Shown: piece after piece, positions 2,637 to 20,405 of the stretch
How positions within the stretch are numbered: position 1 is the first letter of the stretch
Layout of the letters: each line of letters begins with the position of its first letter
Source of the DNA: a virus
Length of the DNA stretch: 64,000 nucleotides
Virus record (IMG/VR): IMGVR_UViG_3300004886_000001
Coordinates: 1 to 64,000 of that record
Reading direction: 5' to 3' (one strand)
Notes under the pieces: model-generated
Seen by the model: the letters and a program-made list of their open reading frames with translations, nothing else
What the model was told of the DNA's origin: nothing
The model's database searches: none
Program-made: the position numbers and the translations under genes

Positions 2637-3790
2637 TACACCACCTCTTTAATCGTGACGCTGCCGGTCAATGTTGTTTCGTGTTCAGACGCACTTTCGT
2701 CAAGACGTCTTACTTTCACTTCAACCCTTACGGGCTCGTTGTTATGCTCGATGCCGCCGTAGCTACCTTTTATCTCCCTGAATACTTTCTCAGGCGATAA
2801 TGCTTCCTCAATCCAGGTTTCAACCACGTCGCCATTAATCAGAAGCGTTACTTCAGCCTTGACGCGGTTTGCATCACTGATTTTTTCAATGGTGATAGTT
2901 TTGGTTTCGTAGACCACCGAGCCGTCAGGCGATTCAAGCCGCAATACAACCTTGGCGACTCCTAAGCCATGCCGGGTGCTGTCAGGCGTGAGAATCAATA
3001 CAGAGCCTTCAATGTCGGCATCTATATCAAGGGCTGTCACTACGACGTGTCGAAAATCAACAGTGCCAAGGTCAACAAACTGGCTTAACGATATTTCATT
3101 GTTCTGGTCGATAAAGACGGTTTGTAGGGGAATGTCCCGGTAAGACGGGAAAGTATCTGCAGGTGCTTCAGCTCCATAGACTCCGACAAATACGGTCGCC
3201 ATGGCAACGGGAACACTGTCCTTGTATAACGAGTAGCCAATGGTATCTATGCCAACAAAGCCTTGGCTTGGCATGTATTCAATACGGTCGCCGTTTTGAT
3301 TTAGACTCTGAACAGAACCGTGGCGCGGCTGCTCGAATATCCGAACCTCGTCATAATCAATTGTGTCGTTGCTAGCTGGCTGAATTTTGGCTGTTAGCAG
3401 ATTGGATATAACTACACCAACATCGTAAGCACCGTCACCGTTATAGTCGTTGCCGTGTCGAGCATTAACCCATTCTGATATTTGGGTACCGCTGGTGATT
3501 TGCGGTAATGATGCATAGGGTATGACTATGTCGACTTCTTCATCACCTTCACCGAAAATAAAGTCGCTGCCGTCACCCGCACCATAAAGCCATAGACCAG
3601 CCGGGTTTGTGTTTCTACCAGAACCATACAGCCAGTCATTAGACAGACCTCTACCGTACAACCAGTCTTCGGTTGCTTTGGGTGCAATCTCGCCGCCTCC
3701 AGTGCTGGCAGGCTCCACGTTAACCGTCACACTGCTTGTGTCTGACGATAAAGGTGGAACGTTAACGGTTACTGTGCTGGTATCAGGCAC
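2636..3790 (-). CDS. Tail fibre/appendage protein
   Basis: 384-aa ORF. N-terminus has tandem TSxVTVNV(P/E)P repeats and three WLYGxG repeats. Lies inside the fibre block and is coupled to both neighbours. Confidence 0.5.
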   Translation of the reverse strand: MPDTSTVTVNVPPLSSDTSSVTVNVEPASTGGGEIAPKATEDWLYGRGLSNDWLYGSGRNTNPAGLWLYGAGDGSDFIFGEGDEEVDIVIPYASLPQITSGTQISEWVNARHGNDYNGDGAYDVGVVISNLLTAKIQPASNDTIDYDEVRIFEQPRHGSVQSLNQNGDRIEYMPSQGFVGIDTIGYSLYKDSVPVAMATVFVGVYGAEAPADTFPSYRDIPLQTVFIDQNNEISLSQFVDLGTVDFRHVVVTALDIDADIEGSVLILTPDSTRHGLGVAKVVLRLESPDGSVVYETKTITIEKISDANRVKAEVTLLINGDVVETWIEEALSPEKVFREIKGSYGGIEHNNEPVRVEVKVRRLDESASEHETTLTGSVTIKEVV

Positions 3791-4942
3791 TTAGACAACC
3801 TCAAACCTGATCGCAAAATCTCCGGGAATATCTCTTATCGACCTTACCCGGTTACCGGTGATTTGAAAGTCCACTGCAGAGCAGTTTACATACTGTGCAA
3901 TTCTCAGTGTGCCGGTGCCGTTCGGGTTAATCATGACAGACGATAAATCTATATCTAATGGCTGACCGATTCTCACACTCGGGCTGGACAGCGCTGCCAG
4001 TGCATCAGAGTCGATAGACTTCACACCGCTACTGGTTGTGCCGCCTCCGGTATTTCCGCCGCCTGTATTGCCACCATTAGATTCAGAGACGATTCTAACT
4101 TTCAGTGATGCAAACGCCACCTGTCCGGTAGAGTCGACTGCAACAACGTTGTATTGGTAGATATCGCCTGGTGTCTCATTACCAGTGGCGTTGTACTGTG
4201 CAATGTTTGTATCGTTCGACAGTCTTTCTAGGGTGCCGTGTGTGCTCGCCACTGCCTCGTTACTACCTTGCGGTGAGTAAGCGTATACAGAATCCGAGTT
4301 AGCCGGGTTGTTGACTGTGGATAGCGTTACTGGTGGTGTGCCGCCTGAGTACAAATCAGTAGCACGGCCAGTTCCGCCAATCACGAATTGTGAAGCGTTT
4401 CCAGCCGCAGTGCCTACAACCCAATCGACAGTTAGATGGCGACCTTCAAAGCCTTGACCGATCTGGAATCGAATTGAACTGAAAATGTTTTCACTAATAC
4501 CCGCTGCAGTGTAGTTGCCCCCTTCGTCCACCCACTCACTACCGTTATGGCGGTAATAATTACCCTGTGAGTATGTGACGTCGCCGTTACTACCGTTCGG
4601 GAGATTGGATGAATCAGGAGAAACACCAATCCAACCGACGATGTCCTTAGCGTGTAAGTCGTAAGTAACTGTGGTGCCGATTGATAGTGCAGACAAAGGC
4701 GTGTAATCGACAGTCACTGCAGAGCGGTCAAATGCAATCATGCCGCCGTCATTTACTGAATTGACAGTTGCTGAAAAGTTGACCGAGTGAAGTACCAAGC
4801 TACCGTTCGGGGTTCCTGAAAATCTTGATTCGTCTGCTGTTGATGCGCTGTTGTCAGTTCCAACGCCTACAAAAAAGCTACTCGTTACACCAGCTTGTGC
4901 CCGTGCATTCTCTCGATTTGTATCGTCTCTTGAAATGGTCAT
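3791..4942 (-). CDS. Tail fibre-like structural protein
   Basis: 383-aa G/N/T/S-rich ORF with a GGNTGGGNTGGG run. Abuts fibre-like genes on both sides. Confidence 0.45.
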   Translation of the reverse strand: MTISRDDTNRENARAQAGVTSSFFVGVGTDNSASTADESRFSGTPNGSLVLHSVNFSATVNSVNDGGMIAFDRSAVTVDYTPLSALSIGTTVTYDLHAKDIVGWIGVSPDSSNLPNGSNGDVTYSQGNYYRHNGSEWVDEGGNYTAAGISENIFSSIRFQIGQGFEGRHLTVDWVVGTAAGNASQFVIGGTGRATDLYSGGTPPVTLSTVNNPANSDSVYAYSPQGSNEAVASTHGTLERLSNDTNIAQYNATGNETPGDIYQYNVVAVDSTGQVAFASLKVRIVSESNGGNTGGGNTGGGTTSSGVKSIDSDALAALSSPSVRIGQPLDIDLSSVMINPNGTGTLRIAQYVNCSAVDFQITGNRVRSIRDIPGDFAIRFEVV

Positions 4943-6774
4943 TATTCGTCCAAATCTACTGTGCCAGACCCTGTTACTTGGGCAGGTAATGAAATTTCAA
5001 GCGAATCACCACTAACAAAGGCATCACCTGGACCCTGTTCGTTAATGTTTCGCTTACCGTTGGTGCCGGGCATCCTTGAAAGATCCAGCGTCGATGATTC
5101 ACCCGGATAGATGTACCGAGGGCTTATAAATGGTGGTATGGCTTCAGGCTCCGGTTGATTAACATCTGCAACGCCACGAACTGTAAAGTTGCCCGTATCA
5201 CCGTTAACCAATCGAAAAGAGATAATCGACTCACCGAGACCATTTGCCTGTATGCGTAGGCGTGGGGCCGTTTCAAGTATCTTGATTGTCGGGTAGCTGG
5301 TTTGCCCTGTGATTTCTGCAATTGCAGCACCCGAGCTATGAATCTGCGTTAAGTCATAAAATCGTTCATCGAGCACCGGGATTTCAAACACGGCACTTTT
5401 AGAAAACCGTGGCGCTTCCGGTAATTCAGGTTGCTCTGGTGTTTCAGGTGTTTCGGGTTCTTCCGGCCCCGGTTCTTCTGGTACTTCTGGTTCTTCCGAC
5501 GGGTTTGTGCCGCCACCTGAATCATCCGGCCGTTCGTTACCACCTTGGGGTATGACAGTTGGGCCTCCGCGAGTCTGATCGCTGTTATCCCATCCGAACA
5601 CACCCTTACCTGGCACGGTGAAAGTCAGCTTCTTAAACTCAACAATCGACTCCCTGCCGTCAGGGTGCGAGTACCACAGCTCTGTGCCGTAGTGAATTCC
5701 GCCTAATACCTGGCCGGGGTTTGGCAGTGGTACTGGTCGCTTACCTCGTGTAGCACCGGGAACCAATGATCCGTTGTTGTACATGGCATTGGCATTAGCG
5801 TTGTTTTGGATAATGCCCGGTAGCACATCCGTCATAAAACGCATGTAAGCGGAAATATTTACCGTCCCTCTGTTTGAGGGGTTGACCATCACTAGACCGA
5901 TGTAATCAAACTCATTTTCACCACGTCGTTCAATCTTGTAGTAAAAGTCATGCTCTTTGTTGTCGATGGTATAACGACCAATCAACACACCACCGGCCCA
6001 GTTGTTATCACTGTCTCTGCCTGCCGGTATATCGTTGGGTATAGGTGGTATGCCCATCCATATATTGACATTCCAGTCTTTAGTGAGGTTGTAGTTAATG
6101 CCGTTGACAGTATCTACAAGCTCCGGCAAAGGTGTGCGGTGTATCTGTCCACCGAGATCACGACCATAACCCGCACCCGGAAAGCCACCCGGTACCCGAG
6201 TAGGATCAGACACGTTGTGCAGGTACATATCAATGAATAGGTTTTCATTGCCACCGTTACGCTCAACGTCATATTCGACAACGATATCTGGAAGGTCAGC
6301 TAAGAATGACGGTAGGCCAACTTGTCGGCGTGGTTCTTCCAAATCCCATACAGGAGATTCGTTTGTATAATTCGGATCGTCAGGACCACCATTGGCCCGG
6401 AACACTCCCTCTGAACCTGCAGCCCTTGGAAAGCCATTACATGCAAGACCACTGGTTTCAAAGCGACCGAACATTGTCCCAAGCATGCCAACAACTGGAA
6501 ACGCTTTAACAGTTCTCTGTGTCGCTTCTTCAGGTGGAATTCTGTACTTAATGAAAACGCTATTGTTCGTTAACCCAGGCTGGCATTCGGCATTTGTGGG
6601 TTGATCGTTATCAACAGTGTTTGTGATTTCAATGTACGAACCTGCAGGAGCATCAACACCCGGCGTAAAGAAGCCAAACCCGTTGGTACCCATCATGAGC
6701 CCATCGGAGTACTGGCGCTTGAACGGGTTGCCGTCGCCTAAGTCAGTCCGAAGTTTTAGTTCTTTAACTGTCAC
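4942..6774 (-). CDS. Tail-associated putative glycan-binding/depolymerase protein, paralog A
   Basis: 610 aa. The N-terminal ~430 aa are paralogous to the 62777..64000 product (shared FxDxYLxxVSxP, NGIxYNxTKxWNxNxW, GIHxGxExW). PE-rich linker EEPEVPEEPGPEEPETPETPEQPELPE. C-terminal Ig-like beta domains. Confidence 0.4.
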   Translation of the reverse strand: MTVKELKLRTDLGDGNPFKRQYSDGLMMGTNGFGFFTPGVDAPAGSYIEITNTVDNDQPTNAECQPGLTNNSVFIKYRIPPEEATQRTVKAFPVVGMLGTMFGRFETSGLACNGFPRAAGSEGVFRANGGPDDPNYTNESPVWDLEEPRRQVGLPSFLADLPDIVVEYDVERNGGNENLFIDMYLHNVSDPTRVPGGFPGAGYGRDLGGQIHRTPLPELVDTVNGINYNLTKDWNVNIWMGIPPIPNDIPAGRDSDNNWAGGVLIGRYTIDNKEHDFYYKIERRGENEFDYIGLVMVNPSNRGTVNISAYMRFMTDVLPGIIQNNANANAMYNNGSLVPGATRGKRPVPLPNPGQVLGGIHYGTELWYSHPDGRESIVEFKKLTFTVPGKGVFGWDNSDQTRGGPTVIPQGGNERPDDSGGGTNPSEEPEVPEEPGPEEPETPETPEQPELPEAPRFSKSAVFEIPVLDERFYDLTQIHSSGAAIAEITGQTSYPTIKILETAPRLRIQANGLGESIISFRLVNGDTGNFTVRGVADVNQPEPEAIPPFISPRYIYPGESSTLDLSRMPGTNGKRNINEQGPGDAFVSGDSLEISLPAQVTGSGTVDLDE

Positions 6775-7339: not shown

Positions 7340-10300
7340 TTAGTACGTCACTTCTGATATTGCCTGCTTCTTGGTTTTAGTGGTTGCGGAAACGCCAGCA
7401 ACATGTTCGTCGCGTTGCTTTTTGTACGCTCTCCAACTGCGGCTAAAATGCTTACTTTGAATCTTCATGTCAGGAAACTTATCAGAATAGCGCTTTGCCA
7501 TTTCACGCGCTTTTTCCATCTTCTTTTCATCGCCCTTTTCCCTGCCTTGGTTCATGATTCGCATGATCTTGGAGCGCACATCACGTAACTGTTTATCACG
7601 TGCATAGATTGCAGAGTTTTTACTGTAAGCCTCTGTCACATCGGAAGGTGTAAAGCCCATCATTTGCGCCAAGTACTCCCACGGCTCCATTTCATGGATT
7701 AAATCACCATGCTTGTTTTTAACGCCACCCTCATAAGCGTACCGGCCAGAGCGAACCACGTCTTTCATAAACTTTGGCAGTACCTTTTCAGTTGCCTTGA
7801 CATAATCACCAGATGCCAAATCACGGCCAGACAATATTGCATTCTTAACCAGTCCGCCTGTAGGACCAGCCAGGTTTTCAAGCATATTAAAATAAGTACT
7901 CTCGCCCAGTTCATCACCCGGTGACGATTCACGGAAAAACAGACTCGAAGTAGAAACACGATCAGACATTGAGAACGGTGTAAACGTATCCCAAACACCC
8001 CTTGTCATTACTTCACCCATTTTGTTACCGAATACATCTGCTGCAAACTGACGTGTCCAGGCTTCGTACTCTATCTCGTCTTCCTCATCAAGAAAGGTAT
8101 TAACAACCGCTTCCAGTGTGTTACCGAGAATACGCGCGCCCGGCAGACCAATTGCACCAGACAACAAGAACTGAACGCCGAGCATCGACGTGAGCATCTT
8201 CTTAGCTTCGCGCTGCTCCTCTGGTGTAGATTCATACTTGCCAAATGCTTTCTTTAGCGTTGATATGTACAAGTGTGCTATCGAGAACGAGTATTGCTTA
8301 AACTGTAGTGCTATACGAGCGGTTGGTGAGCGCATCACTCTGGCACGGTTGCCGGAACTGTAATCAAACTGGCTGTCCCAAGTAGTCTTGGCTGCTTCGT
8401 CCTGTGATTCTTTCTGGCTCTTGCCAGCTTCACGCGCCAGTCGATAAGTAGTCAGTGCTGTTACTTCACGGTTGAGCTTTTCAGTTACATGGAATGTCCA
8501 GCCGACTACTTTCATTGCCCGAGGTATAAAGTCAGACGTGTTCATGCCTTCTTCGGCCAGTCCTGCCAAATCCGCCATCATTGTTTTGTCGATCACACCG
8601 AGCTTTGCCAGATCATCAAGCATTTTCTTTTCTTCAGTAGTGATATCGGCATCATCAAATCCAGTGGATTTATTCTTAAACGATCCTTTAAGGTAATCGT
8701 TCTGCGCTTTTATCAGTGTAGAAGTAGATTTTGCATTGCCGTACTTTGAGCCAAGCATTGGAATAGTCACCATGTACAACTGAGTTGTATTCAACAGCGC
8801 TGCCGCTGGTGTAATACCGAGAATCATTCCAAACCCGAAGCTATTAACCTTATTGGCAAACGGCGACATTTGCGGGTTAAGTGAGTGCTCCATTGATTTC
8901 TTTAGTTCGTCGATGCCGTTCCGAGCTTTGTATTTGTACTCGTCTTTTATGTACTTGGCATTGGTCAGGTGTTTATCGTGGCTATTGCGAACAGCTTCCA
9001 GATCCATACCTGATCGCAACTGCTTCAAAATGCCGTTCCACATCTTGATTGCTTCGTTAGATGTTTCGTTGTCGCGGATTTCCGTTAATTGAGTCGCTAC
9101 ATCGTCATCACTCATAGTCGCATTGATAGCGTGCTCCAGATCAAGAAATGCATCTTCATACTTCTTACGCATGTCAGGGCGGGTTGCCAGATCATATTCC
9201 AGATCCATACTTTGCACGTGCTGCTGCATCTCCCATGAGTGAGAAAGTCTACCCAAGTGTGATGCTGCATGGAACGAACTGTCAGCAAAAGAGCGCAATG
9301 CATCTTGTTCAAAACCTTTCACCTTACCCCGGCGTATCTCATGACGACGGATTGAGAGTTGTGGCAATGCTTTAAGATACATCTGGTTGATTTCGTCCTT
9401 CATGGCAGACAAATCTTCATTGCCCTCTGAAAGCTCGTCAATCATATCGTTGATAGAGTCTTTCATTGAGTCTGGCATCTGCTCTGCCGCCATCATTTCA
9501 TCAGTCAGCTTACTTGACGCCACATCCTTGCCGCCTGCAGCCTTGGCTTGTTTTTCCCACTTCTGCTGATCGTATGGGCTGTCAAATTGCCTGAACTCAT
9601 AGCTACCATCAGGAAACTTAGCACTGGATGCATACTTGCCAAATCGACTTAGCGGAAAGTATGGAGCGTGTAACTTCATCATTTCCCGCATCTCAGTAAT
9701 AGCGGAGTTGTGCTGCTTCTTTGCTTCCAGTGTTGTGTTGGATGCATCGCTGCGAGTAATCATGGCCTGTGTTTGAGCGTCCCACATCTCAGCGTGGTAG
9801 TCTCTCATTTCCCGGTATAGCTCTTTGGCTTCTTCCGGCAGAGAGTTAAATTCTTTGATCAGCTTTTGCGCTTCTGTTGCACGTTCCTTTTTCGTTTTCT
9901 GCAACTCCCGCATGTACTCAAGATTGGTTTTTTCTGCACCAGTCAACCCGGACTTGGCTTTTTCTTTAACTTTGGTGATACGCTTCTGGATTCGATCATA
10001 CTTAGTGCGATCAGCAGGTATAAATGCACGGTAGCCGTCAGCCCTTGTCACTCTGGCTTGCGCTCTCGCTTTCTTGTCAGCTTCTTTGACCTTCTGACCT
10101 TCCTCCTTCAATTCCGCTTTTAGTGCATCAAGCTCTGCCTGGTCATCATCAGATAATGCCTTTGGCTTTTTACGTTCCAGTTTGCGGATTGCAGCATCAA
10201 GTATTGAATCAGTATTTTTGTAATTGTCAGGATCGGCAGATATCAGGGTTGCGTTGTGCATGATATCGGAGACTTTCGACATAACATCTTTGTTTTTCTG

Positions 10301-13300
10301 CGAGTACGCTCTAGCCTTTTCACCAATCTCACCCGCACGTGCCTGCCATTCGTTTCTGACAGCATCCATGTCTTCAGCCGCTTTAAGGTAGTTCTCCATT
10401 CGAGGGAGCATATGCTTAAAACCACCGACTATTTGACGACGGTTGAGTAGTCCAAGACCTTCCTTGCTGCCCTTGTCGATAATTGCGCTAAGTGCTTGCT
10501 GCAGAGATTCTTTACCGGTTAGCTTTTTTTTAAAGCTGTCCATGTTGATCTTGCGTTTTACACCGCCACTGGCTTTAACCTCGGCTGTCATTGCCTGATC
10601 TATCACCCGGTCAACCTCTACCCCCGGTATCCGGCCAGTCATACCCATTTCGCGCAATGCTCTGGATAGCAGAGATTTCAGCTTACGGAATAGCTGCTTT
10701 ACTTCGTTGTCGGTCGATCTGCGCTCTGCCAGCCGTGCCATCATCTCTCCGTAGAACTCGCTTTCCGGGTAGTTCTCACGCACCTGACGCTTTAGATCGG
10801 ATAAACCCGGCATCGAGTCAATATCAGCTTTAACGTCGCTCCAGCGATCCCCTAAGACCTGCTCAACTCCCATGTGACCGACAATTTCATGCATAAGGGT
10901 TTTGTTAAAGTCCTCACGTGACTTTATCTGCTCTGCATTGACGTACACCTGACCGTTGAAAACACCACCTACATCGCCTGCTGTGGCTTCATAGGGTAGG
11001 TCTGTATGGCTGTCTACCACAGAGACTTTTACGCCGGTTACCTTATCTGCTAGTGCTTGGTATTTTTTAGCGTTGGCTGTGGATGCTGGCTTGTCGTTGC
11101 GGATTTTCCGAAGTGCTACCCCGGTATCAGTTTCAGTGGTCTCAATAACATTGAACAGATTCCGATAGGCGTCACGAATACCGTCGTCCATTTCCTCTTT
11201 TGTCGGATAAGCGCCACCGTCCTCGTCAATATTGGCCAAGTAATCATTACTGATACCCTTAGCATCGAGTTCGTCAACAATATATTTTTCAAATCCACGT
11301 GCTGTTTTTTCAATAATGGTTGAATAATACGGCTTGCTACGACCAGCATCTATGTGTGTTGATCGCTCTGAAAACGTACTGTCCGTTATAGCCTGAACCA
11401 ACCCTTTGACTGCATCGAAGGTTTCTTGTCGCATGTTTTCTGGTGGTTTGCTGCGACTGGCAATACTGGATATAAATTCACCCGATGCCTTGCGACCTTC
11501 AATTTTTCGCTCCTGTCGTGCAAAGTAGTTGTCCATTCCATGGAACCACTCATGAGCAAGTGACCCAGGACCAGCCGTTTTTGTCAGGTTTATAGCAATC
11601 TTATCTGGCTCAAAGTGCGCAACCGCGTCACCACCTCTGCCTCTTGCACCAAACGCCAACCCGAGAGATCCATTTAAGGCCAGTGCTTTCGGTGGTAGGT
11701 CAACTGCTTCTGATAGGTCAATCAGCGCATCGTAAGCATCGTTCAAGTCTTTTTGTCGACGTGGACCCTCAACATAGTTGCCAAACTCAACGCCATAGAA
11801 TCCGAATGATTCAGAAAACTGCTCTGGTTGTATTTTGTCTGTGCGTCGTTCAGGACCAGACCGAACATCGTTGCTAACACGTCTGACATTTGGACCCTTT
11901 TTATGGTCCGCGAGTTGCGCCTCTAACGCTTCTTGATTTTCCTGTATGTACTTTAGGGCATCAGGACCAGTTTCAAAGTCATCCTTCATGTGCAGTAAGC
12001 CACCGGGTGACTTATAACCAACAAATACCTGTCTTGTTCCTCTGTTTCTATACACTGAGAATTCAGGACGTTTTTTAGTTCTAGCCTTCTTTTCTTTTGG
12101 TGCGGCGTAGTTTTCCTTTAAGTACTCAACCGCTTTCTGCGCTGCTTCTTCTTTTGAGGGTGCACTTGTGGCACTTCTCGCACGTCTGTCTTTTGATGAT
12201 GCAAGATAGTAGACGGGCACATCATATTCACCCGTTTTTTCATTCTTTGTATGTGCGTAATCGAAGCGGAACTTAGATTTACCGATAGCCTGAAATGTAG
12301 AAGGCGGTAACTTATGAAGTATGTCCGCCATCTCAAACATTGGTCCTAGCGCTCTGTATTCTCTACCTTTGCCTTTTAAGTCCTCGTAAGATATCTGACC
12401 AGACATGACCATCTGAGATACCTCACGCAACAACACAACTTCATTCACCCATCGGTCAATTGCGTAGTTTTTACGTGGCTTAGTTCTAACCTGACCGCGA
12501 ATCAATGCAACTGTCGCAAGTGCTTTTAAGTCGGCTCCAGATTCCGCTAGCTTTTCATAGTTTGGTGCCGGGAATGATTTCGATAGTGGAGCTGCCTTTA
12601 TATCAACGTCCACAGCCATTCGGTCAAGCCATTCGTGAGTTTGATCTTTCCGAGCGCCGCCAATTTTCTTACCAAAGTCCGTTATTTCTTTCGGTGTTTT
12701 ATCTTCCAGTTCTTCAGCGTCTTCCTTCGCGGCTATCTCGCTTTCTGCTGGCGCTTCAACATGGCTATCGACCGCATCACGCATTTTTTGCTTTGTATAC
12801 GGTCCCTTATAACCAATAGCCTTGGATTTCTCTTTTAGCTGCTTCCAGCTTGCCTCTGGCACTGGCTTAGTTTTATCACCGTCTTTTACCCACGACTTAA
12901 AATCCTGCATAGACATCGGAACAATGGACTCTAAGCCCGGCCAGTTGTCATCGTAGTTTGAAAGGTAACCGATTTCCGCTTCACTCTTGCTGCGGAAGCC
13001 CATCATTATCTTATGTTCATCGAATTTACCGTCAAAAGCCTGGTTAACAACGAATACCTTCTGACTTGATGGATTGTCGCCAATAAACACATCGAGATCA
13101 TCCCCGTCTGCGCCTTTAGTGCCTTTAATATCGCCGTAATGGTGTTTCATGGTCACTGACCACTTCTTACCTTCACTGGTACCGGAGCGTTCTGAACCTT
13201 TCGGATTCTCAATAGCAATGTCAAAGCCGTGTAACTTGATACGACCTTTTTTGTAATTGTCAGCCTCTATCTGTGCCTCTGTCGGATCTGTGTTGGTTTC

Positions 13301-15652
13301 TGCTGCTGCCGTTTCAATATCTGCGGCGGTTGGCTCTACAGTTGACACAGGTGAGGTACGGTCGATGTCTGCGCGAATGTCCGCAACGGCGTCATTAGGG
13401 TTTACATCGTTTTGAACCGTAGGTGTTTCTGGTTTATCCGCTTTTTCTTTGAGTGCATTGCGATCAATGTCCGCACGTAAATCTGCAACCGCATCTTGTG
13501 GTTTTAACTTTTGCCCTTCTGGCTTTTCAGCTTTAGGCTGCTCTGCCGGTTTCTGGTTCCGCTTAACTTCCTCTCGGATATCAGCAACAGCATTCTGTGG
13601 CCTGCCGGTCAGTGCATTGGCTCTGTGCTCAATAGCTGATGCGATAGTATTGGCGCTGGCTGTCTCTGGTAGGCCGTCAACGACGCTATTCCATGCCTCG
13701 GGCGGCAACTTAGCCTTAACCATATCCCGGTACGCTTTCGCAATTCTGCGCTGCTCTTTGGTAGCCATTTGTGAATCAGGACTGATAACGTCTTGCTGCC
13801 TGATTGGTGCAAGTGTTGCCGGTTGCTCTTTACCTTCCACCAGTACTGCCGGTACCGAGTTTTGGAGCCCGGTTTGTAACGATTGGAAGTCATCGAGCCA
13901 TTTACGCTCTTGCTGGAATTGCTGCTCTGTGTCTTCGACTGCCTCTTTTTGTTGCTCAAGTTGTTCTTTCTGGTGAGTTAGTCGAGCAACATGCTGCTTA
14001 CCAATAATTTTATCTACTGGTTTGGTTGCGGCCTTGAGCTTTTCCTGCACATCACTCAATTGCAGATCAAGTTTATGCTCTATCCTGGCTATGTCGTTTT
14101 TGACCACATCAGGACCAACCGACTCGACGCGCTTTGGCGACACCTCTAAGCGGCCAGCCTGCCCGTAATCAACTACCTGACCTTCGAGAGCATCACGCTC
14201 AATTGTTGGGTTGTCGCGGCCTATTTCAGCATCTCGGTCAAGCAATTCACCTTCCAGTGTTTCTACCTGCATTTCTCTGCTGGCAGTTTCACCGTCGATA
14301 GCATCACGTCCAATACCCGTTTTATCACTGCCTATAGGCGTATCTTTATCGAGTAATTCACCCTCAATGGCTGATTCACCCTGCAGTTCACCTGTGTTAA
14401 TTTCTGCCGCATCATTTGTGGTCGAATTTATTAACTCGTCGCGGGTAATGCCCTGGTCTTCCGGGTAATCAATGACACCATCCGAGCGCTGACCGGCCGG
14501 CACCATAGCATTGAATAGTTCTTCTACTTCTGGATCTGCTGTTGGGTCGGCTGGTGGTGGTTCTACTGCAGGCTCACTGGCTGGATTTAAGGCGTCATAA
14601 CCGTTCTGGAGTATGTCAGCATCGGTACCATAGTTGCCAGTCGCACCGGGACCATCACCGAGCCCTTCTGCAGCTCGCATCAGATCGTCAACATTGTTAT
14701 CAGGGCTGTCTGGTTGTGGTTGCTCTGGTTGCACCCCTCTTTCAGCAAGTGCCGCCCTGGTCTGACCAATAGAACTGGCACCACCACCCATAGCACCACC
14801 ACCGAGCATGCCAGCCAAACCGGCAGTCTTCCAGTCACCAATAATATTCTTTAGTTGGTTGATATCGTCAGTGCTCCAATTGTCGATATCAGATCGCACC
14901 ATTTCAACGGCGGTTTGTTCAACTGCAGATTGGAGTATTTCGGTGCCGCCCTCTTTGAGTGACGTTGTTGCGGTTTCTTTTAATACGTTTTTGACGCGAT
15001 TCTTTAGCCCGGACCCTATCCCTGTACCCTTCAGCTTGTCGAGTGCACTAAACACCGGCAGCGTATCAATCACACCGGATATCGTACCGGCAGCGAGCGC
15101 TTTACCGGCGTGAATCTCTCCGGTTTCATCATGCATCTGACCACCGACGCCACCAGTCATCATGCCGACATTAGTACCGGCTGCAACACCCTTAGCGCCA
15201 TATTTTGCTATTGCAGTTTTTGCAAAGTCCTCGGCTGCTTCCTTGCCGCCCATACCGTTGGCCATACGCTTCTGAATGCCCTTTTTAGCTGCTGCTTTTA
15301 CCGCTACAGTCCCAGCACCACCACCGGCTGCCATGGTCGCTATCTGGGGGATCATTTCACCGATCTTACCTACACCGAAATCTACAAACGAACCGATACC
15401 GTCTATTTCATCAGCAGTATTGACGTCTGCGACATTATCCCGCATGTCATCGGCTTGATCGTGATAGCCACGCATACCAGAGCGTTCAAGGTACTCATCA
15501 CCGATAGCAGCACCAGCCGTTGCAGCCAGACCAGCACCCATCTGTTGAACCTGATCAACACCACGAGCGATACCTTTGCGTAACTCGCCTTTTGGTTTTT
15601 TAAGATCGACGCCTACGAGATCGGAGTAATCACCTTCTAGTTTTATATCCAT
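7340..15652 (-). CDS. Giant multi-domain virion (polyvalent / PLxRFG-type) protein
   Basis: Uninterrupted 2,770-aa ORF. Gly/Ala-rich N-terminus, pyrophosphatase-like module (AIENPKGS...YGDIKGTKGADGDDLDVFIG), SLAHEWFHGMDNY, MHEIVGHMG, YFPLSRFGKY, hydrophobic helices in the C-terminal third. All plus-strand ORFs inside look like antisense shadows. Confidence 0.7.
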   Translation of the reverse strand: MDIKLEGDYSDLVGVDLKKPKGELRKGIARGVDQVQQMGAGLAATAGAAIGDEYLERSGMRGYHDQADDMRDNVADVNTADEIDGIGSFVDFGVGKIGEMIPQIATMAAGGGAGTVAVKAAAKKGIQKRMANGMGGKEAAEDFAKTAIAKYGAKGVAAGTNVGMMTGGVGGQMHDETGEIHAGKALAAGTISGVIDTLPVFSALDKLKGTGIGSGLKNRVKNVLKETATTSLKEGGTEILQSAVEQTAVEMVRSDIDNWSTDDINQLKNIIGDWKTAGLAGMLGGGAMGGGASSIGQTRAALAERGVQPEQPQPDSPDNNVDDLMRAAEGLGDGPGATGNYGTDADILQNGYDALNPASEPAVEPPPADPTADPEVEELFNAMVPAGQRSDGVIDYPEDQGITRDELINSTTNDAAEINTGELQGESAIEGELLDKDTPIGSDKTGIGRDAIDGETASREMQVETLEGELLDRDAEIGRDNPTIERDALEGQVVDYGQAGRLEVSPKRVESVGPDVVKNDIARIEHKLDLQLSDVQEKLKAATKPVDKIIGKQHVARLTHQKEQLEQQKEAVEDTEQQFQQERKWLDDFQSLQTGLQNSVPAVLVEGKEQPATLAPIRQQDVISPDSQMATKEQRRIAKAYRDMVKAKLPPEAWNSVVDGLPETASANTIASAIEHRANALTGRPQNAVADIREEVKRNQKPAEQPKAEKPEGQKLKPQDAVADLRADIDRNALKEKADKPETPTVQNDVNPNDAVADIRADIDRTSPVSTVEPTAADIETAAAETNTDPTEAQIEADNYKKGRIKLHGFDIAIENPKGSERSGTSEGKKWSVTMKHHYGDIKGTKGADGDDLDVFIGDNPSSQKVFVVNQAFDGKFDEHKIMMGFRSKSEAEIGYLSNYDDNWPGLESIVPMSMQDFKSWVKDGDKTKPVPEASWKQLKEKSKAIGYKGPYTKQKMRDAVDSHVEAPAESEIAAKEDAEELEDKTPKEITDFGKKIGGARKDQTHEWLDRMAVDVDIKAAPLSKSFPAPNYEKLAESGADLKALATVALIRGQVRTKPRKNYAIDRWVNEVVLLREVSQMVMSGQISYEDLKGKGREYRALGPMFEMADILHKLPPSTFQAIGKSKFRFDYAHTKNEKTGEYDVPVYYLASSKDRRARSATSAPSKEEAAQKAVEYLKENYAAPKEKKARTKKRPEFSVYRNRGTRQVFVGYKSPGGLLHMKDDFETGPDALKYIQENQEALEAQLADHKKGPNVRRVSNDVRSGPERRTDKIQPEQFSESFGFYGVEFGNYVEGPRRQKDLNDAYDALIDLSEAVDLPPKALALNGSLGLAFGARGRGGDAVAHFEPDKIAINLTKTAGPGSLAHEWFHGMDNYFARQERKIEGRKASGEFISSIASRSKPPENMRQETFDAVKGLVQAITDSTFSERSTHIDAGRSKPYYSTIIEKTARGFEKYIVDELDAKGISNDYLANIDEDGGAYPTKEEMDDGIRDAYRNLFNVIETTETDTGVALRKIRNDKPASTANAKKYQALADKVTGVKVSVVDSHTDLPYEATAGDVGGVFNGQVYVNAEQIKSREDFNKTLMHEIVGHMGVEQVLGDRWSDVKADIDSMPGLSDLKRQVRENYPESEFYGEMMARLAERRSTDNEVKQLFRKLKSLLSRALREMGMTGRIPGVEVDRVIDQAMTAEVKASGGVKRKINMDSFKKKLTGKESLQQALSAIIDKGSKEGLGLLNRRQIVGGFKHMLPRMENYLKAAEDMDAVRNEWQARAGEIGEKARAYSQKNKDVMSKVSDIMHNATLISADPDNYKNTDSILDAAIRKLERKKPKALSDDDQAELDALKAELKEEGQKVKEADKKARAQARVTRADGYRAFIPADRTKYDRIQKRITKVKEKAKSGLTGAEKTNLEYMRELQKTKKERATEAQKLIKEFNSLPEEAKELYREMRDYHAEMWDAQTQAMITRSDASNTTLEAKKQHNSAITEMREMMKLHAPYFPLSRFGKYASSAKFPDGSYEFRQFDSPYDQQKWEKQAKAAGGKDVASSKLTDEMMAAEQMPDSMKDSINDMIDELSEGNEDLSAMKDEINQMYLKALPQLSIRRHEIRRGKVKGFEQDALRSFADSSFHAASHLGRLSHSWEMQQHVQSMDLEYDLATRPDMRKKYEDAFLDLEHAINATMSDDDVATQLTEIRDNETSNEAIKMWNGILKQLRSGMDLEAVRNSHDKHLTNAKYIKDEYKYKARNGIDELKKSMEHSLNPQMSPFANKVNSFGFGMILGITPAAALLNTTQLYMVTIPMLGSKYGNAKSTSTLIKAQNDYLKGSFKNKSTGFDDADITTEEKKMLDDLAKLGVIDKTMMADLAGLAEEGMNTSDFIPRAMKVVGWTFHVTEKLNREVTALTTYRLAREAGKSQKESQDEAAKTTWDSQFDYSSGNRARVMRSPTARIALQFKQYSFSIAHLYISTLKKAFGKYESTPEEQREAKKMLTSMLGVQFLLSGAIGLPGARILGNTLEAVVNTFLDEEDEIEYEAWTRQFAADVFGNKMGEVMTRGVWDTFTPFSMSDRVSTSSLFFRESSPGDELGESTYFNMLENLAGPTGGLVKNAILSGRDLASGDYVKATEKVLPKFMKDVVRSGRYAYEGGVKNKHGDLIHEMEPWEYLAQMMGFTPSDVTEAYSKNSAIYARDKQLRDVRSKIMRIMNQGREKGDEKKMEKAREMAKRYSDKFPDMKIQSKHFSRSWRAYKKQRDEHVAGVSATTKTKKQAISEVTY

Positions 15653-17247
15653 TAGTTCTCTTTTTTGAACATCTCTTTAAGTCGTTGGATAGGTGTTTTT
15701 TTGAAAGCCTCGCCTAGACGCTCATCTGTGCGCTTTCTTCCTTCTTCCATGGCTGCATCAATTTTGCTCTGATACTCTTTTTTGTCCTTTACGGATTCGG
15801 CCTTGCGTTTTATTTTATCCAGTGCGTTTTGAACATTGCCGTCTGCTCGCTTAAATTCTTTGCGAAGTGTTTTGTCAATATAACTTTCAATCTCTTTGAG
15901 TTCTGGATTGTTTTCCAGTAGATCGGCTTTAAGTTTCGGGATTCCCTCTCGGTTCTTTTTCTGCTGAACAAGCATCTCTGCAGCCTGTGGCACTTCAACC
16001 TCAAGTTTTTGCGCCAGTTCTTTTGCTTGGCTAACTGCAGCCTTTGATACAATCCCTGCCTCTATAAGTACGTTATGAGCCATCGCACTATCAGGGTCAT
16101 CTTTGAAGCTCTCAGCAAGTATATCAGCGTTTTTCTGCATAAGCGGAGTAGCGTCACCGCCGACAGTAGCTGTACCAGCAGTAGAATCAAGAACAACCTC
16201 GCCAATATTCGGATCATACAATCGGTCTCCAACTTTGATTAAGTCCTTTTCCTCTTTTGGTGGTGGATTAAGTCCATAGGTGTCCTTTATTTTCTGCATA
16301 TTTTTAGCCATAGCAGCATTAGACATTAGCTTTTCAAGTATCTCTGGAGCTGTGAACGCTTCGCCTATATCCTCCGGGTTGCTGCTTTGTCCGTATGTTT
16401 GAAACCCGGTAGAACCGTCTTCCATTTTGAACTTTGGAATGTAGCCTTTTGGTGTTTTAATCATCGCTACAATCTCACTCTTTCTGCCATCAACTGCAGA
16501 CGTGGTCTTGTGCTGTAGGTTCAGTGCTTTAAGCAATTTCGGGTCATCGAGTTTGGTTTTACCGCTAGCAAGGGAATTTGCTGCAACTTCCATTATCTCA
16601 ATGGTTTGGTTCAAGTCCTCATCTTCAAAGCCAGATAGCTTTACGAGCTTTTCGTAAGATGCTGATGCACCTTTAATGTCACCGGCTTTTATAGAAGCCT
16701 CAACCCTTCGCATTTCATCAGCAACGTTCTGGATGTTCTCGGCTCGTTTCTGCTGGTTCATTTCAAAATCTTTTTTGATGCCGTTTTTCTTGGCATTTGA
16801 AATGTTGTGATTCTGCAGTTCTATGTTTAACTTTTGCTGCTTCTTACGGTACCAGTCTTGGTTTTTGTACTCAGTACGCTCGTACTGTTTGAATGCATGA
16901 TCATCTGCGTCACGTTCGCGTTGTGTAGCACGATCTTGAACACCTTCCTTATACATCTCATCTTCACGCCCTTGCAAAACACCTTGACGCGCATGTGCTT
17001 CTGCAGAGCGTTGACGGTTGGTTTCGTCATCAATCAACTGTTGTTCATAAGCCGCATCATTGCGACCCTCTAACACATCCTGACGTGCAAGGTTACGGCT
17101 CCTGTCTTCTTGGCGCTGCTGAAACAACAGTTTTTGCTGATCGCGCTGCTCTGCTTCGGCACCAATGGCTTTAGCGTTTCGGTAATCCCTGAGTGCAGAG
17201 CTGATTAAACCTTGGCCCTGCAGGTGTGAAGTGTCATATACACGCAT
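15652..17247 (-). CDS. Coiled-coil internal virion/ejection-like protein
   Basis: 531 aa, very charged (R/Q/E/K) with repeats RQDVLEGRNDAAYEQQ / RQGVLQGREDEMYKEG. 1-nt overlap with the giant gene start. Confidence 0.4.
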   Translation of the reverse strand: MRVYDTSHLQGQGLISSALRDYRNAKAIGAEAEQRDQQKLLFQQRQEDRSRNLARQDVLEGRNDAAYEQQLIDDETNRQRSAEAHARQGVLQGREDEMYKEGVQDRATQRERDADDHAFKQYERTEYKNQDWYRKKQQKLNIELQNHNISNAKKNGIKKDFEMNQQKRAENIQNVADEMRRVEASIKAGDIKGASASYEKLVKLSGFEDEDLNQTIEIMEVAANSLASGKTKLDDPKLLKALNLQHKTTSAVDGRKSEIVAMIKTPKGYIPKFKMEDGSTGFQTYGQSSNPEDIGEAFTAPEILEKLMSNAAMAKNMQKIKDTYGLNPPPKEEKDLIKVGDRLYDPNIGEVVLDSTAGTATVGGDATPLMQKNADILAESFKDDPDSAMAHNVLIEAGIVSKAAVSQAKELAQKLEVEVPQAAEMLVQQKKNREGIPKLKADLLENNPELKEIESYIDKTLRKEFKRADGNVQNALDKIKRKAESVKDKKEYQSKIDAAMEEGRKRTDERLGEAFKKTPIQRLKEMFKKEN

Positions 17248-17253
17248 GATTAT

Positions 17254-17478
17254 TTACCCGAATAGTAAGCCTAAAGCACCACCAGCCAGCGCACCCCATG
17301 GGCCACCTACCTGAGCGCCCATCGTTGCGCCAGATACAGCACCGCTTACTTTGTTTTTCGCCTTGGTGTGTTTAATGTTGGCGTTCTGTGCGTTTCTTGC
17401 AGACTCAAGCGATGCCAGATGGTTGTAACCACGTCGGCCCGCATCGTTTTTCTGTCTATATGCTGCTGCTAAACTCAT
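17254..17478 (-). CDS. Small Gly-zipper membrane/virion protein
   Basis: 74 aa with C-terminal GAQVGGPWGALAGGALGLLFG. Overlaps the upstream gene by 4 nt. Confidence 0.5.
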   Translation of the reverse strand: MSLAAAYRQKNDAGRRGYNHLASLESARNAQNANIKHTKAKNKVSGAVSGATMGAQVGGPWGALAGGALGLLFG

Positions 17479-17867
17479 AGTAAATCCGTCCTTAAACGAT
17501 CAAAGTAACGACTGGCACCATCAACATTTTGTGCCTTAGATAACTGCTGATGATTTTGCAATCGGCGGTTATCGTTAGCGTCGATCCCATCTCTACCTTG
17601 CATCCGGTTTCGCTCTTGCATTCTCGAACGTGCACGACCGAATGCCGAGTCAGTTTGTTGTGAAACAGACTGCAATAGGTTAGAGCGGTTTTGCTCTGCC
17701 TGCGGCCCTATAAGATGCTCCGCGTAGAGTTCTTCTAGCGGTCTTTGTTCAGTGTTGTAGCGGTCGAGTTGATCGCGTGTAATACCTGCAAATATTTCAT
17801 CTGCAGTATTTTCCTGGCTACTGGAAGAACCACCACCGAGAAGACTTGTTAATAATCCAAGAGGCAT
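17475..17867 (-). CDS. Virion-module protein, unknown function
   Basis: 130-aa ORF, coupled to both neighbours. Confidence 0.55.
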   Translation of the reverse strand: MPLGLLTSLLGGGSSSSQENTADEIFAGITRDQLDRYNTEQRPLEELYAEHLIGPQAEQNRSNLLQSVSQQTDSAFGRARSRMQERNRMQGRDGIDANDNRRLQNHQQLSKAQNVDGASRYFDRLRTDLL

Positions 17868-18538
17868 TATCCGACTCCTATGCCGTTAGGCTGTGTGTAC
17901 GGTTGCTGTTGTCTTGCACGACCTAACAAACCACCCTGACTCGCTGCCACTCCTGCACCTGCAACACTGCCGAGTAAACCGAGTGTATTTGATTGCGTGG
18001 CAAACTGGTTGGCTGCATTAAAGTTAGCCTGCTGTGACTGGTTGTTTGCTAATTGACTCATATCATTAGCGCTCTGCATCTGTGCGCCATGCGCAAGCCC
18101 TGCAGCATTAGCCATAGCACCATAAGCATTCGACACATCACCTTCTGCGGTCTGCCTGACAGCTTGTGATTCATCTTTGGCTTGTGCGATATCACCAACA
18201 TCATCAGATCCTGTCTGCATGTTCGGGTTAACAGGACCACGATTTGATTCATAGGCTTTTGAAATGGCCGCGACTGGTGCACCTGAGTTCACCGTGTTCA
18301 TACGAACCTGACCGTTTGCGTCTAAGTGAGAACGACGCCTGGTAGGATCTGCATCATAACTGCCGGTCTCTGTATTCCATTGCATGCCGAGGGTTTCAGC
18401 AACCCGTTCACGCTCAAGAGGAATGCCTGTCTCCTTGTACCCCTGAATCATGCCTTGCATCAACTCAGCTTCTGCAAGTTCAGCTTGTGACACTTCCGCT
18501 TCTGGCGTACCAAATAGATTGCTAAAAAATCCCATCAT
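17867..18538 (-). CDS. Virion-module protein, Q/A/N-rich
   Basis: 223-aa ORF with a Gly/Ala-rich C-terminus (LGLLGSVAGAGVAASQGGLLG). ATGA overlap with the upstream micro-ORF. Confidence 0.55.
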   Translation of the reverse strand: MMGFFSNLFGTPEAEVSQAELAEAELMQGMIQGYKETGIPLERERVAETLGMQWNTETGSYDADPTRRRSHLDANGQVRMNTVNSGAPVAAISKAYESNRGPVNPNMQTGSDDVGDIAQAKDESQAVRQTAEGDVSNAYGAMANAAGLAHGAQMQSANDMSQLANNQSQQANFNAANQFATQSNTLGLLGSVAGAGVAASQGGLLGRARQQQPYTQPNGIGVG

Positions 18539-18669
18539 CTGCGCTCCAATGTTCTTACACGTTGAGACAAGGCATTTAATTCCTTTCTCAATCTCTCGTT
18601 TTCTTCGTTCAGTTCCTTAATAACTGCTTGCATTTCTGGTGGTAAATTAGGAGGAATTCGGACAGTCAT
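18535..18669 (-). CDS. 44-aa coiled-coil micro-protein (below the ORF-track threshold)
   Basis: ATG shares 1 nt with the upstream TAA (TAATG) and the stop overlaps the next ATG (ATGA). Translation MTVRIPPNLPPEMQAVIKELNEENERLRKELNALSQRVRTLERR. Confidence 0.5.
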   Translation of the reverse strand: MTVRIPPNLPPEMQAVIKELNEENERLRKELNALSQRVRTLERR

Positions 18670-20405
18670 TAGTACAAGTCCTCTGCACGGTGTGCGATTC
18701 TAAACGACTGAATTATCGCTGATGACTCAATTCTAAACGTGGCTTTTCTATCTCTAAACGTCGAATCAATGGCGAATATCCCATCGTCTGTAATATCAAT
18801 CCAATCACCACTATTTACTCTAAATCTGCAGTTGTTGTAGTCTTCTGCGCAAACCCTCAAGTATACGAGTGGTTCGTGCTCTTTAATTTCAAACTCACGC
18901 TCCCAATAGCCAGTAAGTCGAGATCCAGCATTAAACTGGTGCCTTGTAAGCGTTCCACTGATTTCTGTGAATACCTCAAGTGACTCGTTCCCTGTTGACG
19001 AATCCGGGTTTTTAACAAGGTATATGTCATCTGCCTGTATATCCGGCAACTCCATTAACTCGCTATAGCGCACGTTGTATGCGTAGCCTTTCCACAATCC
19101 ACCTTGGCGGAAATAAAAGATATACCGGCCCTGATAAGAGCTTGCCTTAATAGACGTCAACTCTAACTGCTGCCACTCTCTGGTATTGATAACCTCACTG
19201 CCACCATCATGACGGTTGTCCATGGTGAGTACAGTTCCAGAGTAGTTCTGTATTGCACAAATACCGCTGTAGCTGACATAAAGAATGGCAAAGCCCATAT
19301 CAACCACTGATTCAGGCGCTATACACGGCTCTGCAAAAGGAATCTGTTGCTCATAAGGTGTTTCGTAACCTGTAATTACACTCGGTCTGCCATCGGTCAA
19401 AACAAGCACTTCTTCACCAGATCGGATAATCCGAACAATACGTCGGTCGATAGGTATCTCAATCGGCCATGATATCGGATTTCCCTGGTCACTCATGTGC
19501 ACCGTTCGGTTGTTCCAACTAACACCAGCAAGCCGTCCGTTAGATGCATTAATCATGTTTTTAACATTGGCTGGACCGTCTGCATCGAGAGTCAATAACT
19601 CACCCTCTGCATCTGCAGGATCTAATGTAAAAAACGCGGTACCGAGTATGTTTTCACCGTCCAGATTGGTACCGACAATGTTCCCACCCTGGGCAGGAAA
19701 AGCTAGATTTATCGGTTCTTCATGAATCAGTCGGGCCTGACCTTCTATTTCCATATAAATGCGAATCGATTTAATGTTTGTCATCTTGTCGCTGACATTG
19801 ACAAACGCTCTGATGCTATCCGTGTAGTCAAAGCTGAACACTCGCGTTGCAAGGGTTGGCGATGTCTCAAAGCCGTCACGAGTTAATATGGTTGCCAGTA
19901 AGACGGTGTTGTCTATTCTTTCGCCTTGTGGTGGTACCTCTACCGCAACACCCGCCTCGGGCCTAAATGCCAACCCAATAACTCGCGGTGAAATGTACTG
20001 AGATAGCAAATTACCGCCATACGTATCAGCGTCGGTGTATTGCCCCTGTAGAGACACAGCCAGTGCGGTACCCAGATCAGGGTCTATCGGATTACCCATG
20101 GATGCATTAGCAAACACCAGCTCTCGATCATCGGCAGTGTAGTAAGACTCAGCAACGCTGTAGCTATCGACGTGCATGTAGTCATAGCTGCCATCGTTGC
20201 GCCTGATCACCTGGATGGTGTCAAACGGGAATCTCGGTGTTTCTGGCTGATAGTCCAGTCGTAGCAGATCCTGCAGCGGTCGAAACTCTCCAGATGTCAG
20301 CCACAAATTACCGGCTTTACTGGAGTACTCGCTTCTCTGGTTGTAGGGGTGCAGTCCTGGCCGAAACCCTCTAAATTCTCGAATCTCGATCATGGGGCAA
20401 TGCAC
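18669..20405 (-). CDS. Large structural protein (tail/adaptor/nozzle candidate)
   Basis: 578-aa ORF in the morphogenesis block downstream of the capsid genes. No motif recognised. Confidence 0.4.
   Translation of the reverse strand: MHCPMIEIREFRGFRPGLHPYNQRSEYSSKAGNLWLTSGEFRPLQDLLRLDYQPETPRFPFDTIQVIRRNDGSYDYMHVDSYSVAESYYTADDRELVFANASMGNPIDPDLGTALAVSLQGQYTDADTYGGNLLSQYISPRVIGLAFRPEAGVAVEVPPQGERIDNTVLLATILTRDGFETSPTLATRVFSFDYTDSIRAFVNVSDKMTNIKSIRIYMEIEGQARLIHEEPINLAFPAQGGNIVGTNLDGENILGTAFFTLDPADAEGELLTLDADGPANVKNMINASNGRLAGVSWNNRTVHMSDQGNPISWPIEIPIDRRIVRIIRSGEEVLVLTDGRPSVITGYETPYEQQIPFAEPCIAPESVVDMGFAILYVSYSGICAIQNYSGTVLTMDNRHDGGSEVINTREWQQLELTSIKASSYQGRYIFYFRQGGLWKGYAYNVRYSELMELPDIQADDIYLVKNPDSSTGNESLEVFTEISGTLTRHQFNAGSRLTGYWEREFEIKEHEPLVYLRVCAEDYNNCRFRVNSGDWIDITDDGIFAIDSTFRDRKATFRIESSAIIQSFRIAHRAEDLY

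Follow-up and report, generated by a model that had tools for sequence, protein, structure and literature searches.

The giant open reading frame (ORF) at 7340..15652 (minus strand) of the viral DNA stretch analysed here (IMG/VR record IMGVR_UViG_3300004886_000001, positions 1 to 64,000, referred to as a whole as the window) is read, at a probability of about 0.72, as the gene for an ejection (internal virion) protein of a temperate F116-group podovirus, built as a constant chassis with an inserted enzymatic cargo of ~1,000 residues. The protein is probably packed in the capsid and ejected into the host before the DNA enters. It is likely not just cargo but part of the ejection apparatus, its N- and C-terminal modules corresponding to IVP-D (internal virion protein D) of the F116-group podoviruses.

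The ORF runs uninterrupted from an ATG (15652) to a TAA (7340) and encodes 2,770 residues in 13.0% of the window. It is considered real because 2,770 stop-free codons cannot come about by chance at 47% GC. Its coordinates coincide with those of the original prediction, which was made from the DNA letters before any database search and described one unbroken 8.3 kb minus-strand ORF covering 13% of the window. A megablast search of the gene against 50,697 phage records returned no match. The homologue set comprises 102 giant proteins of 1.8-4.8 kaa (thousand residues) on phage-sized contigs, with a best local identity of 37%. The giant protein belongs to a family already described, as a new member of divergent sequence, and represents neither a new system nor a new domain order.

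The original prediction had called the product a "polyvalent" protein, as Iyer et al. 2017 use the term, and this name is borne out by four Pfam polyvalent-protein domains and two zincin metallopeptidase (MPTase) centres. Polyvalent proteins carry two to 15 distinct conflict-type domains; InPase, LPD5, LPD1 and LPD39 were found here alongside the two MPTase centres. The zincin MPTase hub expected of such proteins, with HExxH or HExxxH plus a downstream Glu, is present in both centres, and the gene is located among (pro)phage virion and late genes, as is typical of the class.

Across the homologues, an N-terminal module (N-module), the LPD39 domain and a C-terminal PLxRFG tail are constant and the middle is variable; the family is therefore interpreted as a chassis with variable cargo. 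N-module and tail co-occur, and the shortest complete forms (~1,550-1,900 residues) have LPD39 as their sole Pfam domain. In size, this minimal chassis matches an internal virion protein D of the T7 gp16 class. In many homologues, methylase, helicase or ART domains are found in addition; the cargo of the giant protein occupies ~1,000 residues between the N-module and LPD39.

An earlier suggestion that the domain order may be new did not survive this comparison. The series InPase, LPD5/MPTase/LPD1, HExxxH, LPD39 and tail is collinear in the metagenomic proteins P0001, P0003, P0004 and P0006, and it is the exact domain set that is unmatched among the 102 listed homologues. The closest overall architecture is that of P0001 (3,311 residues), which includes the Pfam set of the giant protein and is collinear over 1,842 of its 2,770 residues at 23-46% identity. 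P0001 differs by an extra LPD3 (PF18798) insert of ~480 residues between InPase and LPD5, and an iterated search detected no N-module in it.

Orthology and gene position both point to IVP-D. Hardies et al. 2016 defined an "F116 homology group" of podoviruses (PMC4819975), and in their Table 2 two Vibrio phage douglas products are identified, 00068 as tubular tail B and 00062 as a homologue of T7 internal virion protein D (gp16). Pseudomonas phage H66 gp60, F116 p60 and PBC5 p23 were assigned together with douglas 00062 as IVP-D homologues (HMM-HMM, i.e. hidden Markov model comparison, E 8e-19; PMC4819975). The giant protein is orthologous to listed members of this group (douglas 00062, H66 gp60), and its tail aligns with H66 gp60 over 613 columns (hhalign 8.5e-46). 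Its gene lies downstream of a tubular tail B homologue and of candidate small internal virion proteins, and the model of its tail is almost all helix. The late operon, read on the minus strand, has the order terminase, portal, major head protein, SU10-type adaptor, 578-aa protein, two small proteins, 531-aa protein and giant ORF. This order is syntenic with that of Vibrio phage douglas 12A4, in which 00068, 00065/00066 and 00062 all have counterparts. That the protein is packaged, as originally proposed, gains indirect support from this syntenic position and from H66 gp60, whose record states mass-spectrometry verification as a virion part.

Modules of the giant protein

The N-module (aa ~20-300; 14753..15595, minus) was delimited by homologue alignment and profile search and has no Pfam model, a Pfam search giving no match at E ≤ 10. 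It coincides with the Gly/Ala-rich N-terminal ~300 residues seen in the original prediction, and Gly plus Ala account for 41% of aa 101-200. Its motif E-G-x-T-E-x-x-Q is nearly invariant, with E234 and E238 invariant in the alignment. In iterated searches the module sits N-terminally in at least 40 of the 102 homologues. When 1.84 billion proteins were searched, its profile retrieved 11,538 cluster representatives at E ≤ 1e-3 (1,758 at ≤ 1e-30); among the matches listed, the best 150 of the 11,538, it is N-terminal in 150 of 150. Where N-module proteins reach at least 1,600 residues, 60 of 91 also carry the PLxRFG tail. A tblastn search of isolated phages with the module gave no match. In the AlphaFold2 (AF2) model, confidence is reached only over aa 20-110, a stretch of three long helices, and a Foldseek search of the model against a viral library produced only weak matches, to the first segments of other polyvalent proteins. 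The profile retrieved only noise (prion Gly/Ala segments) from PDB sequences. From its sequence distribution, the N-module is a candidate new domain family.

An acidic low-complexity linker follows (aa 301-780; 13313..14752, minus), recognised by its composition and including a coiled-coil-like stretch. The acidic repeats predicted after the N-terminus are recovered in it: Asp plus Glu make up 22-26% of aa 301-500, and short repeats exist, with EGELLD occurring twice (aa 430 and 467). The motif xAVAD[IL]R occurs three times (aa 688, 721 and 755, a spacing of ~33 residues). Pfam returned only sub-threshold coiled-coil noise for the linker, and a BLAST self-comparison found no long internal repeats in the giant protein.

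The first enzymatic domain is InPase, a family-I pyrophosphatase-like OB fold (aa 792-923; 12884..13279, minus; Pfam PF18823, E 1.9e-53), inside which lies the pyrophosphatase-like module previously placed at 12890..13262. Catalytic-type residues are present at E815, R822, Y839, D849, D851, D854, D878, E879 and K881, and they are intact and conserved in the 41 homologues aligned. The segment D849-G-D851-D-L-D854 aligns with D65/D67/D70 of E. coli pyrophosphatase (PPase), so that the D-x-D-x-x-D signature is present. Among PDB sequences, the InPase profile matched the C-terminus of the phage Pa193 portal at 6e-44; below it, 24 of 26 weak matches were canonical PPases, sub-threshold and aligned on Y-G-Y-I...D-G-D-x-x-D-V. 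This portal, Pa193 gp19 (9b41), is the sole solved-structure sequence match, and because its InPase-like C-terminus is not modelled in 9b41, the InPase module has no solved structure. According to Iyer et al. 2017 (PMC5512222), InPase is specific to phages, has lost the canonical beta-hairpin and in some cases is fused to a portal.

LPD5 (aa 1142-1281; 11810..12229, minus; Pfam PF18799, E 8.5e-23) lies within a phrog_616 block (aa 956-1516) that is 37% identical to large proteins of Shiga-toxin (Stx) phages. In the view of Iyer et al., LPD5 is possibly enzymatic (PMC5512222). It is followed by zincin metallopeptidase 1 (aa ~1285-1420; 11393..11800, minus), with H1346, H1367-E1368-W-F-H1371, D1374 and E1410. 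The HEWFH first noticed at aa 1367 is indeed encoded at 11540..11554 and is a canonical H-E-x2-H; it is contained in SLAHEWFHGMDNY, which begins at aa 1364 of the giant ORF. The catalytic residues of this centre (HEWFHGMD) are 94-100% conserved in 34 homologues, and the NCBIfam CLCA_X-like model covers the HEWFH region at 2.5e-38, under the cutoff of that model. The phage-type MPTase is characterised by a His that ends strand 2 and by an Asp located three residues past HExxH (Iyer et al. 2017, PMC5512222), and metallopeptidase 1 fits this description.

LPD1 (aa 1435-1505; 11138..11350, minus; Pfam PF18796, E 3.1e-13) separates this centre from zincin metallopeptidase 2, a HExxxH variant (aa ~1560-1645; 10718..10975, minus) with H1588, E1589, H1593 and E1636, all four 100% conserved in 19 homologues. 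The "second H-E-x3-H" of the original prediction, MHEIVGHMG, stands in position (HEIVGH at aa 1588, 10874..10891; MHEIVGHMG from aa 1587) and in its H-E-x3-H form; only the word "second" fails, HEWFH being H-E-x2-H. The HExxxH variant of MPTases had already been described, and MPTases have been proposed to autoprocess (Iyer et al. 2017, PMC5512222).

LPD39 (aa 1716-1982; 9707..10507, minus; Pfam PF18858, 1.2e-17, or 7.5e-23 on a tile) is the only Pfam domain of the minimal family members and lies directly N-terminal to the PLxRFG motif. The tail itself, the "tail-700" module (aa 1985-2770; 7343..9700, minus), is described by NCBIfam NF032893. Both the PLSRFG placed at aa 2000 (9638..9655) and the comparison with entries named "PLxRFG domain-containing protein" proved correct, the score being 523.6 bits (E 8.1e-157) for NF032893, whose cutoff is 100. 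The tail forms the extreme C-terminus in 62 of 62 homologues and occurs in 71 isolated phages of 55-66 kb, including Pseudomonas F116/H66/LKA5-like phages, Klebsiella LASTA/SopranoGao/ZX1, Erwinia PEp14/Pavtok, Sinorhizobium PBC5 and Vibrio douglas. Its conserved motifs are PLSRFG, LPxxSxR...HRKG..GF..DA and FHxxExxNRE, and three positions of the tail alignment, L17, R19 and G21, do not vary.

The AF2 model of the tail (pLDDT 68) is all-alpha after a small beta meander. A Foldseek search of this model against the PDB found nothing (best E 0.66, TM ~0.1), and the tail profile retrieved only noise (alcohol dehydrogenase) from PDB sequences. In the viral library, Foldseek matched polyvalent proteins from 6e-32 downwards, a Vibrio phage ICP2 protein, and the Roseobacter phage CRP-4 protein named "Internal virion protein D" (6e-6). 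Of 19 tail members, three match phrog_12003, "internal virion protein", and the PHROG label of the tail family is "DarB-like antirestriction". The several hydrophobic helices predicted for the last ~700 residues are only weakly upheld: two moderately hydrophobic segments exist (aa 2269-2295 and 2486-2509, Kyte-Doolittle ≤ 1.56), and none is strongly transmembrane-like.

The most conserved motif of the tail is polar, F-H-x-x-E-x-x-N-R-E (aa 2387-2395), with E, N and R invariant. The same segment is the part that still aligns with Bcep22 gp75. Judged by its conservation, it could mark an unrecognised active or binding site.

A further property of the giant protein is the avoidance of cysteine. 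It contains 0 cysteines in 2,770 residues, versus 0.83-1.13% in neighbouring genes (P about 1e-10), and the products of four consecutive genes at 7340..18538 (223, 130, 531 and 2,770 residues; 3,654 in total) are all Cys-free. Those of the tail-tube, head, portal and terminase genes of the window are not. Cysteine is absent from 75 of the 102 homologues and from 101 of 143 N-module proteins, and also from douglas 00062, Bcep22 gp75, T7 gp16 and five gp16 relatives, phiRIO-1 gp37 and PTXU04 gp21-25. This avoidance fits an unfolded passage across the oxidising periplasm, as circumstantial support for ejection, and it may generally mark proteins whose ejection route crosses the periplasm.

Probable ejection protein and alternative explanations

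In the course of events envisaged for an ejection protein, a few copies would enter the capsid, probably along with the upstream 531-aa, 130-aa and 223-aa proteins. On adsorption, the protein would be threaded mostly unfolded through the short tail and the periplasm, before the DNA and as "beads on a string". The chassis (N-module, LPD39 and tail) would help build or anchor the inner-membrane end of a trans-envelope conduit, and the InPase, LPD5, LPD1 and metallopeptidase cargo would refold on the cytoplasmic side.

Several results weigh against this assignment. The direct profile tests for IVP-D are only suggestive: a 67-sequence tail profile aligned with the phiRIO-1 gp37 family at P 2.8e-4 (hhalign, 323 columns) and, at P 0.005, with the C-terminal profile of T7-like gp16 over 31 columns (one helix). 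A search with phiRIO-1 gp37 gave only 8 close relatives, and a large search with T7 gp16 gave only sequences at least 94% identical, of no use for a profile. Reversed controls for the tail comparisons gave P 0.17-0.35. Against single T7 gp16 and phiRIO-1 gp37 sequences, hhalign with the tail profile was not significant (0.12-0.27). BLASTP and hmmsearch comparisons of Bcep22 gp75 with the tail were negative and hhalign was weak (P 0.0036); PTXU04 gp25 matched neither the N-module nor the tail HMM. The confidence of the tail model is only moderate (pLDDT 68) and no similar fold was found for it in the PDB, most of the N-module model is of low confidence, and the hydrophobic segments of the tail are too weak to establish membrane insertion of the giant protein. 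The exact protein is also absent from the public-assembly index. Finally, the roles that can be offered for the enzymes are speculative: the metallopeptidases could conceivably split the polyprotein into separate units, and InPase could conceivably hydrolyse pyrophosphate or a nucleotide-derived compound, favouring early phage processes or blunting host signalling (compare Iyer et al. 2017, PMC5512222), its substrate being a matter of conjecture.

A more ambitious version of the ejection reading is tentative, and we hold it to be possible rather than probable. It would see N-module, LPD39 and tail as a very widespread Cys-free "ejectosome chassis", a strongly divergent gp16-class protein that has repeatedly been given interchangeable enzyme cassettes. 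The N-module would then be membrane-engaging or channel-forming, and FHxxExxNRE would mark a catalytic or DNA-handling site. The giant protein would in that case offer a compact natural system in which to dissect the threading of a ~300-kDa multi-enzyme through a short tail.

The strongest competitor, a minority explanation that we regard as rather unlikely, is that the protein is pure cargo, its packaging and injection serving solely to deliver enzymes of anti-defence or host takeover in the manner of P1 DarB, with the terminal modules serving as mere capsid-targeting or export signals. It draws on the "DarB-like antirestriction" annotation of the tail, on the methylase, helicase and ART domains typical of counter-defence in many homologues, on the view of Iyer et al. 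that polyvalent proteins are early-phase effectors (PMC5512222), and on the weakness of the IVP-D profile tests. The giant protein, however, has no methyltransferase or helicase domain, which makes the DarB label inapplicable, and chassis-only minimal members (~1.6-1.9 kaa) are hard to square with a mere delivery tag. Moreover, the gene occupies the IVP-D position of the operon, with no other IVP-D-sized candidate between the tail-tube gene and the distal genes, and its orthologues were assigned to IVP-D by Hardies et al. (PMC4819975).

It is very improbable that the product is a cytoplasmic, non-virion polyprotein, made late and never packaged (e.g. a host-remodelling or DNA-metabolism enzyme complex). 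Such a protein would agree with a middle dominated by enzymatic domains. It is opposed by the start of the gene, which overlaps the upstream stop within the morphogenesis operon, by the mass-spectrometric detection of H66 gp60 in virions, by the fusion of InPase to portals in other phages, and by a cysteine avoidance common to known ejection proteins. A tape-measure protein or N4-type virion RNA polymerase, which large size, helical content and the reported kinship of N4 gp50 with IVP-D might suggest, can be practically discounted, since no such family matched at E ≤ 1, no PDB sequence match to the N4 mini-vRNAP (mini virion RNA polymerase) was obtained, and the context is of podovirus type (SU10 adaptor, tubular-tail-B homologue) with no long-tail genes. 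The original prediction had likewise recognised no T7/N4-type RNA polymerase motifs and had proposed assignment to either family as its own refutation; the profile searches assign neither.

Giant PLxRFG/polyvalent proteins occupy 13-22% of the genomes in a large group of ~60-kb temperate podoviruses, which includes transducing and Shiga-toxin phages. To our knowledge, neither has a structure been solved nor a mechanism demonstrated for any PLxRFG/polyvalent member of this group. Taken for this window by itself, the analysis mostly confirms published comparative genomics, and the more useful leads are at the level of the family: an N-module that has no name, an anatomy of chassis plus cargo, and the avoidance of cysteine. 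The giant protein is relatively small and free of a methylase or helicase load, so that the constant chassis is plain against a short cargo. If the chassis interpretation is true, routine annotation of such proteins as "DarB-like antirestriction" or "DNA methylase" would be misleading, the abundant, unnamed N-module would merit a family model, and cysteine depletion would be a simple, testable marker of proteins that phages eject through the periplasm.

Genomic neighbourhood

The late operon was annotated from the large terminase (TerL, 28551..30233) through the portal (25722..27815), the major head protein (22979..24280) and the SU10-type adaptor (21767..22354), all on the minus strand. The 578-aa protein (18669..20405, minus) is a homologue of douglas 00068 (4.8e-16). 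PHROGs names it "internal virion protein" (phrog_511), a name that may be misleading, douglas 00068 being tubular tail protein B according to Hardies et al. Downstream, two small Q/N/G-rich, Cys-free proteins of 130 and 223 residues (17475..18538, minus) are homologues of douglas 00065/00066 (E 2e-4 to 3e-3) and candidate small internal virion proteins.

The gene directly upstream of the giant ORF encodes a highly charged, Cys-free protein of 531 residues (15652..17247, minus), the positional equivalent of douglas 00063, H66 gp59 and Bcep22 gp74. Family searches with this protein returned no match; it is a candidate ejection protein. The ATG of the giant ORF overlaps the stop of this gene (TAATG), an arrangement that, at the nucleotide level, suggests translational coupling. 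The original prediction had placed the giant ORF between coiled-coil ejection-like genes and a fibre block. The first flank is in keeping with the 531-aa neighbour, which is charged and helical-looking; the fibre block has no family support beyond a weak Ig-like match.

Elsewhere in the window, a tyrosine integrase (59068..60063), a helicase, a methyltransferase, RusA and a tRNA-Thr(GGT) (40850..40932) were found. A lysis cassette at 61372..62684 comprises a GTA-type holin with three transmembrane segments (3-TM, PF11351), a spanin-like ORF and a phage lysozyme. The element is considered a temperate phage or prophage because integrase, lysis cassette and tRNA-Thr are present.

At the left edge, an open frame of at least 882 codons (1..2648, minus), without Pfam match, is cut by the window boundary; it is probably a large distal tail or fibre protein. 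Because this frame runs off the window, the phage is not wholly inside it. A 610-aa protein (4942..6774, minus) and a 369-aa protein (62777..63886, minus) share a similar segment (WNVNIWMG / WNINFWFK), and a 384-aa protein (2636..3790, minus) has "TVNVEP" in common with the 369-aa protein. Going by these shared segments, receptor-binding modules that are paralogous to one another may lie at the two ends of the window.

Two further observations concern other parts of the window. In the tail module, beside Cys-free neighbours, a 193-aa ORF (20390..20971, minus) without family match contains 15 cysteines (7.8%); either a small structural protein that binds metal or a wrongly called frame may account for it. 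In the early/replication region, a ~120-nt segment occurs in two copies ~315 nt apart (53939..54374) at 84-89% identity; these could be a duplicated small gene or iteron-like repeats.

Comparison with known systems

One comparison is with the "DarB-like" proteins. P1 DarB and the Bcep22 and JC1 proteins resemble the giant protein in being giant, capsid-internal and encoded by temperate phages. JC1 gp69 and Bcep22 gp75 are present in virions, and JC1 gp68, a 510-aa protein that precedes gp69 and occupies the position of the 531-aa protein of the window, is a virion protein by mass spectrometry (PMC9144972). A further large analogue is PTXU04 gp25, a 2,198-aa polyvalent protein that is essential for plaquing by CRISPRi-ART (PMC11879866). 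The virion proteomics of JC1 and Bcep22 and the essentiality of PTXU04 gp25 serve as analogies only, these proteins and the giant protein not being detectably one family. The "DarB-like" PHROG label misfits the giant protein and rests only on the shared tail. Antirestriction of the P1 DarB type was considered and rejected, no N6-adenine methyltransferase or SF2 helicase match being found in Pfam/NCBIfam at E ≤ 1.

T7 gp16 and phiRIO-1 gp37, the inner-membrane part of the DNA ejectosome, have a comparable operon position and are largely alpha-helical and Cys-free, like the giant protein. T7 gp16 differs in that a lytic transglycosylase forms its N-terminus and that InPase, MPTase and LPD domains are all absent from it. 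The giant ejection protein gp50 of coliphage N4 combines a membrane-anchoring domain with cytoplasmic enzymatic domains, and a "beads on a string" translocation has been proposed for it (PMC13434306). Its 3,500 residues follow the same outline as the giant protein, with a terminal membrane-associating module, a core of enzymatic function, a C-terminal region that includes an MPTase, and linkers that are long and flexible. Its cargo is different, including an RNA polymerase domain that the giant protein lacks. Hardies et al. 2016 (PMC4819975) report the C-terminal domain of N4 gp50 as homologous to IVP-D.

The best match in an isolated phage is 00062 of Vibrio phage douglas 12A4 (3,026 residues), in which InPase is 61% and the tail 36% identical and the HExxxH/LPD39 region is aligned. 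It too is a giant ORF downstream of a tubular-tail-B homologue and two small proteins. The tblastn alignment covers only ~31% of the giant protein, neither the LPD5/MPTase-1/LPD1 block nor an N-module was detected in 00062, and douglas has an additional 1,348-aa gene in that module.

Pseudomonas phage H66 gp60/F116 p60 (3,787 residues) differs in cargo, carrying a SAM (S-adenosylmethionine)-methyltransferase-like segment where the giant protein has its InPase/LPD5/MPTase cargo, and in H66 the lysis cassette directly follows gp60, whereas other genes intervene in the window. Like the giant ORF, gp60 belongs to a late operon, being its last gene in a temperate podovirus of ~65 kb, and the two proteins are homologous over the whole PLxRFG tail, including "YAPLSRFGKY".

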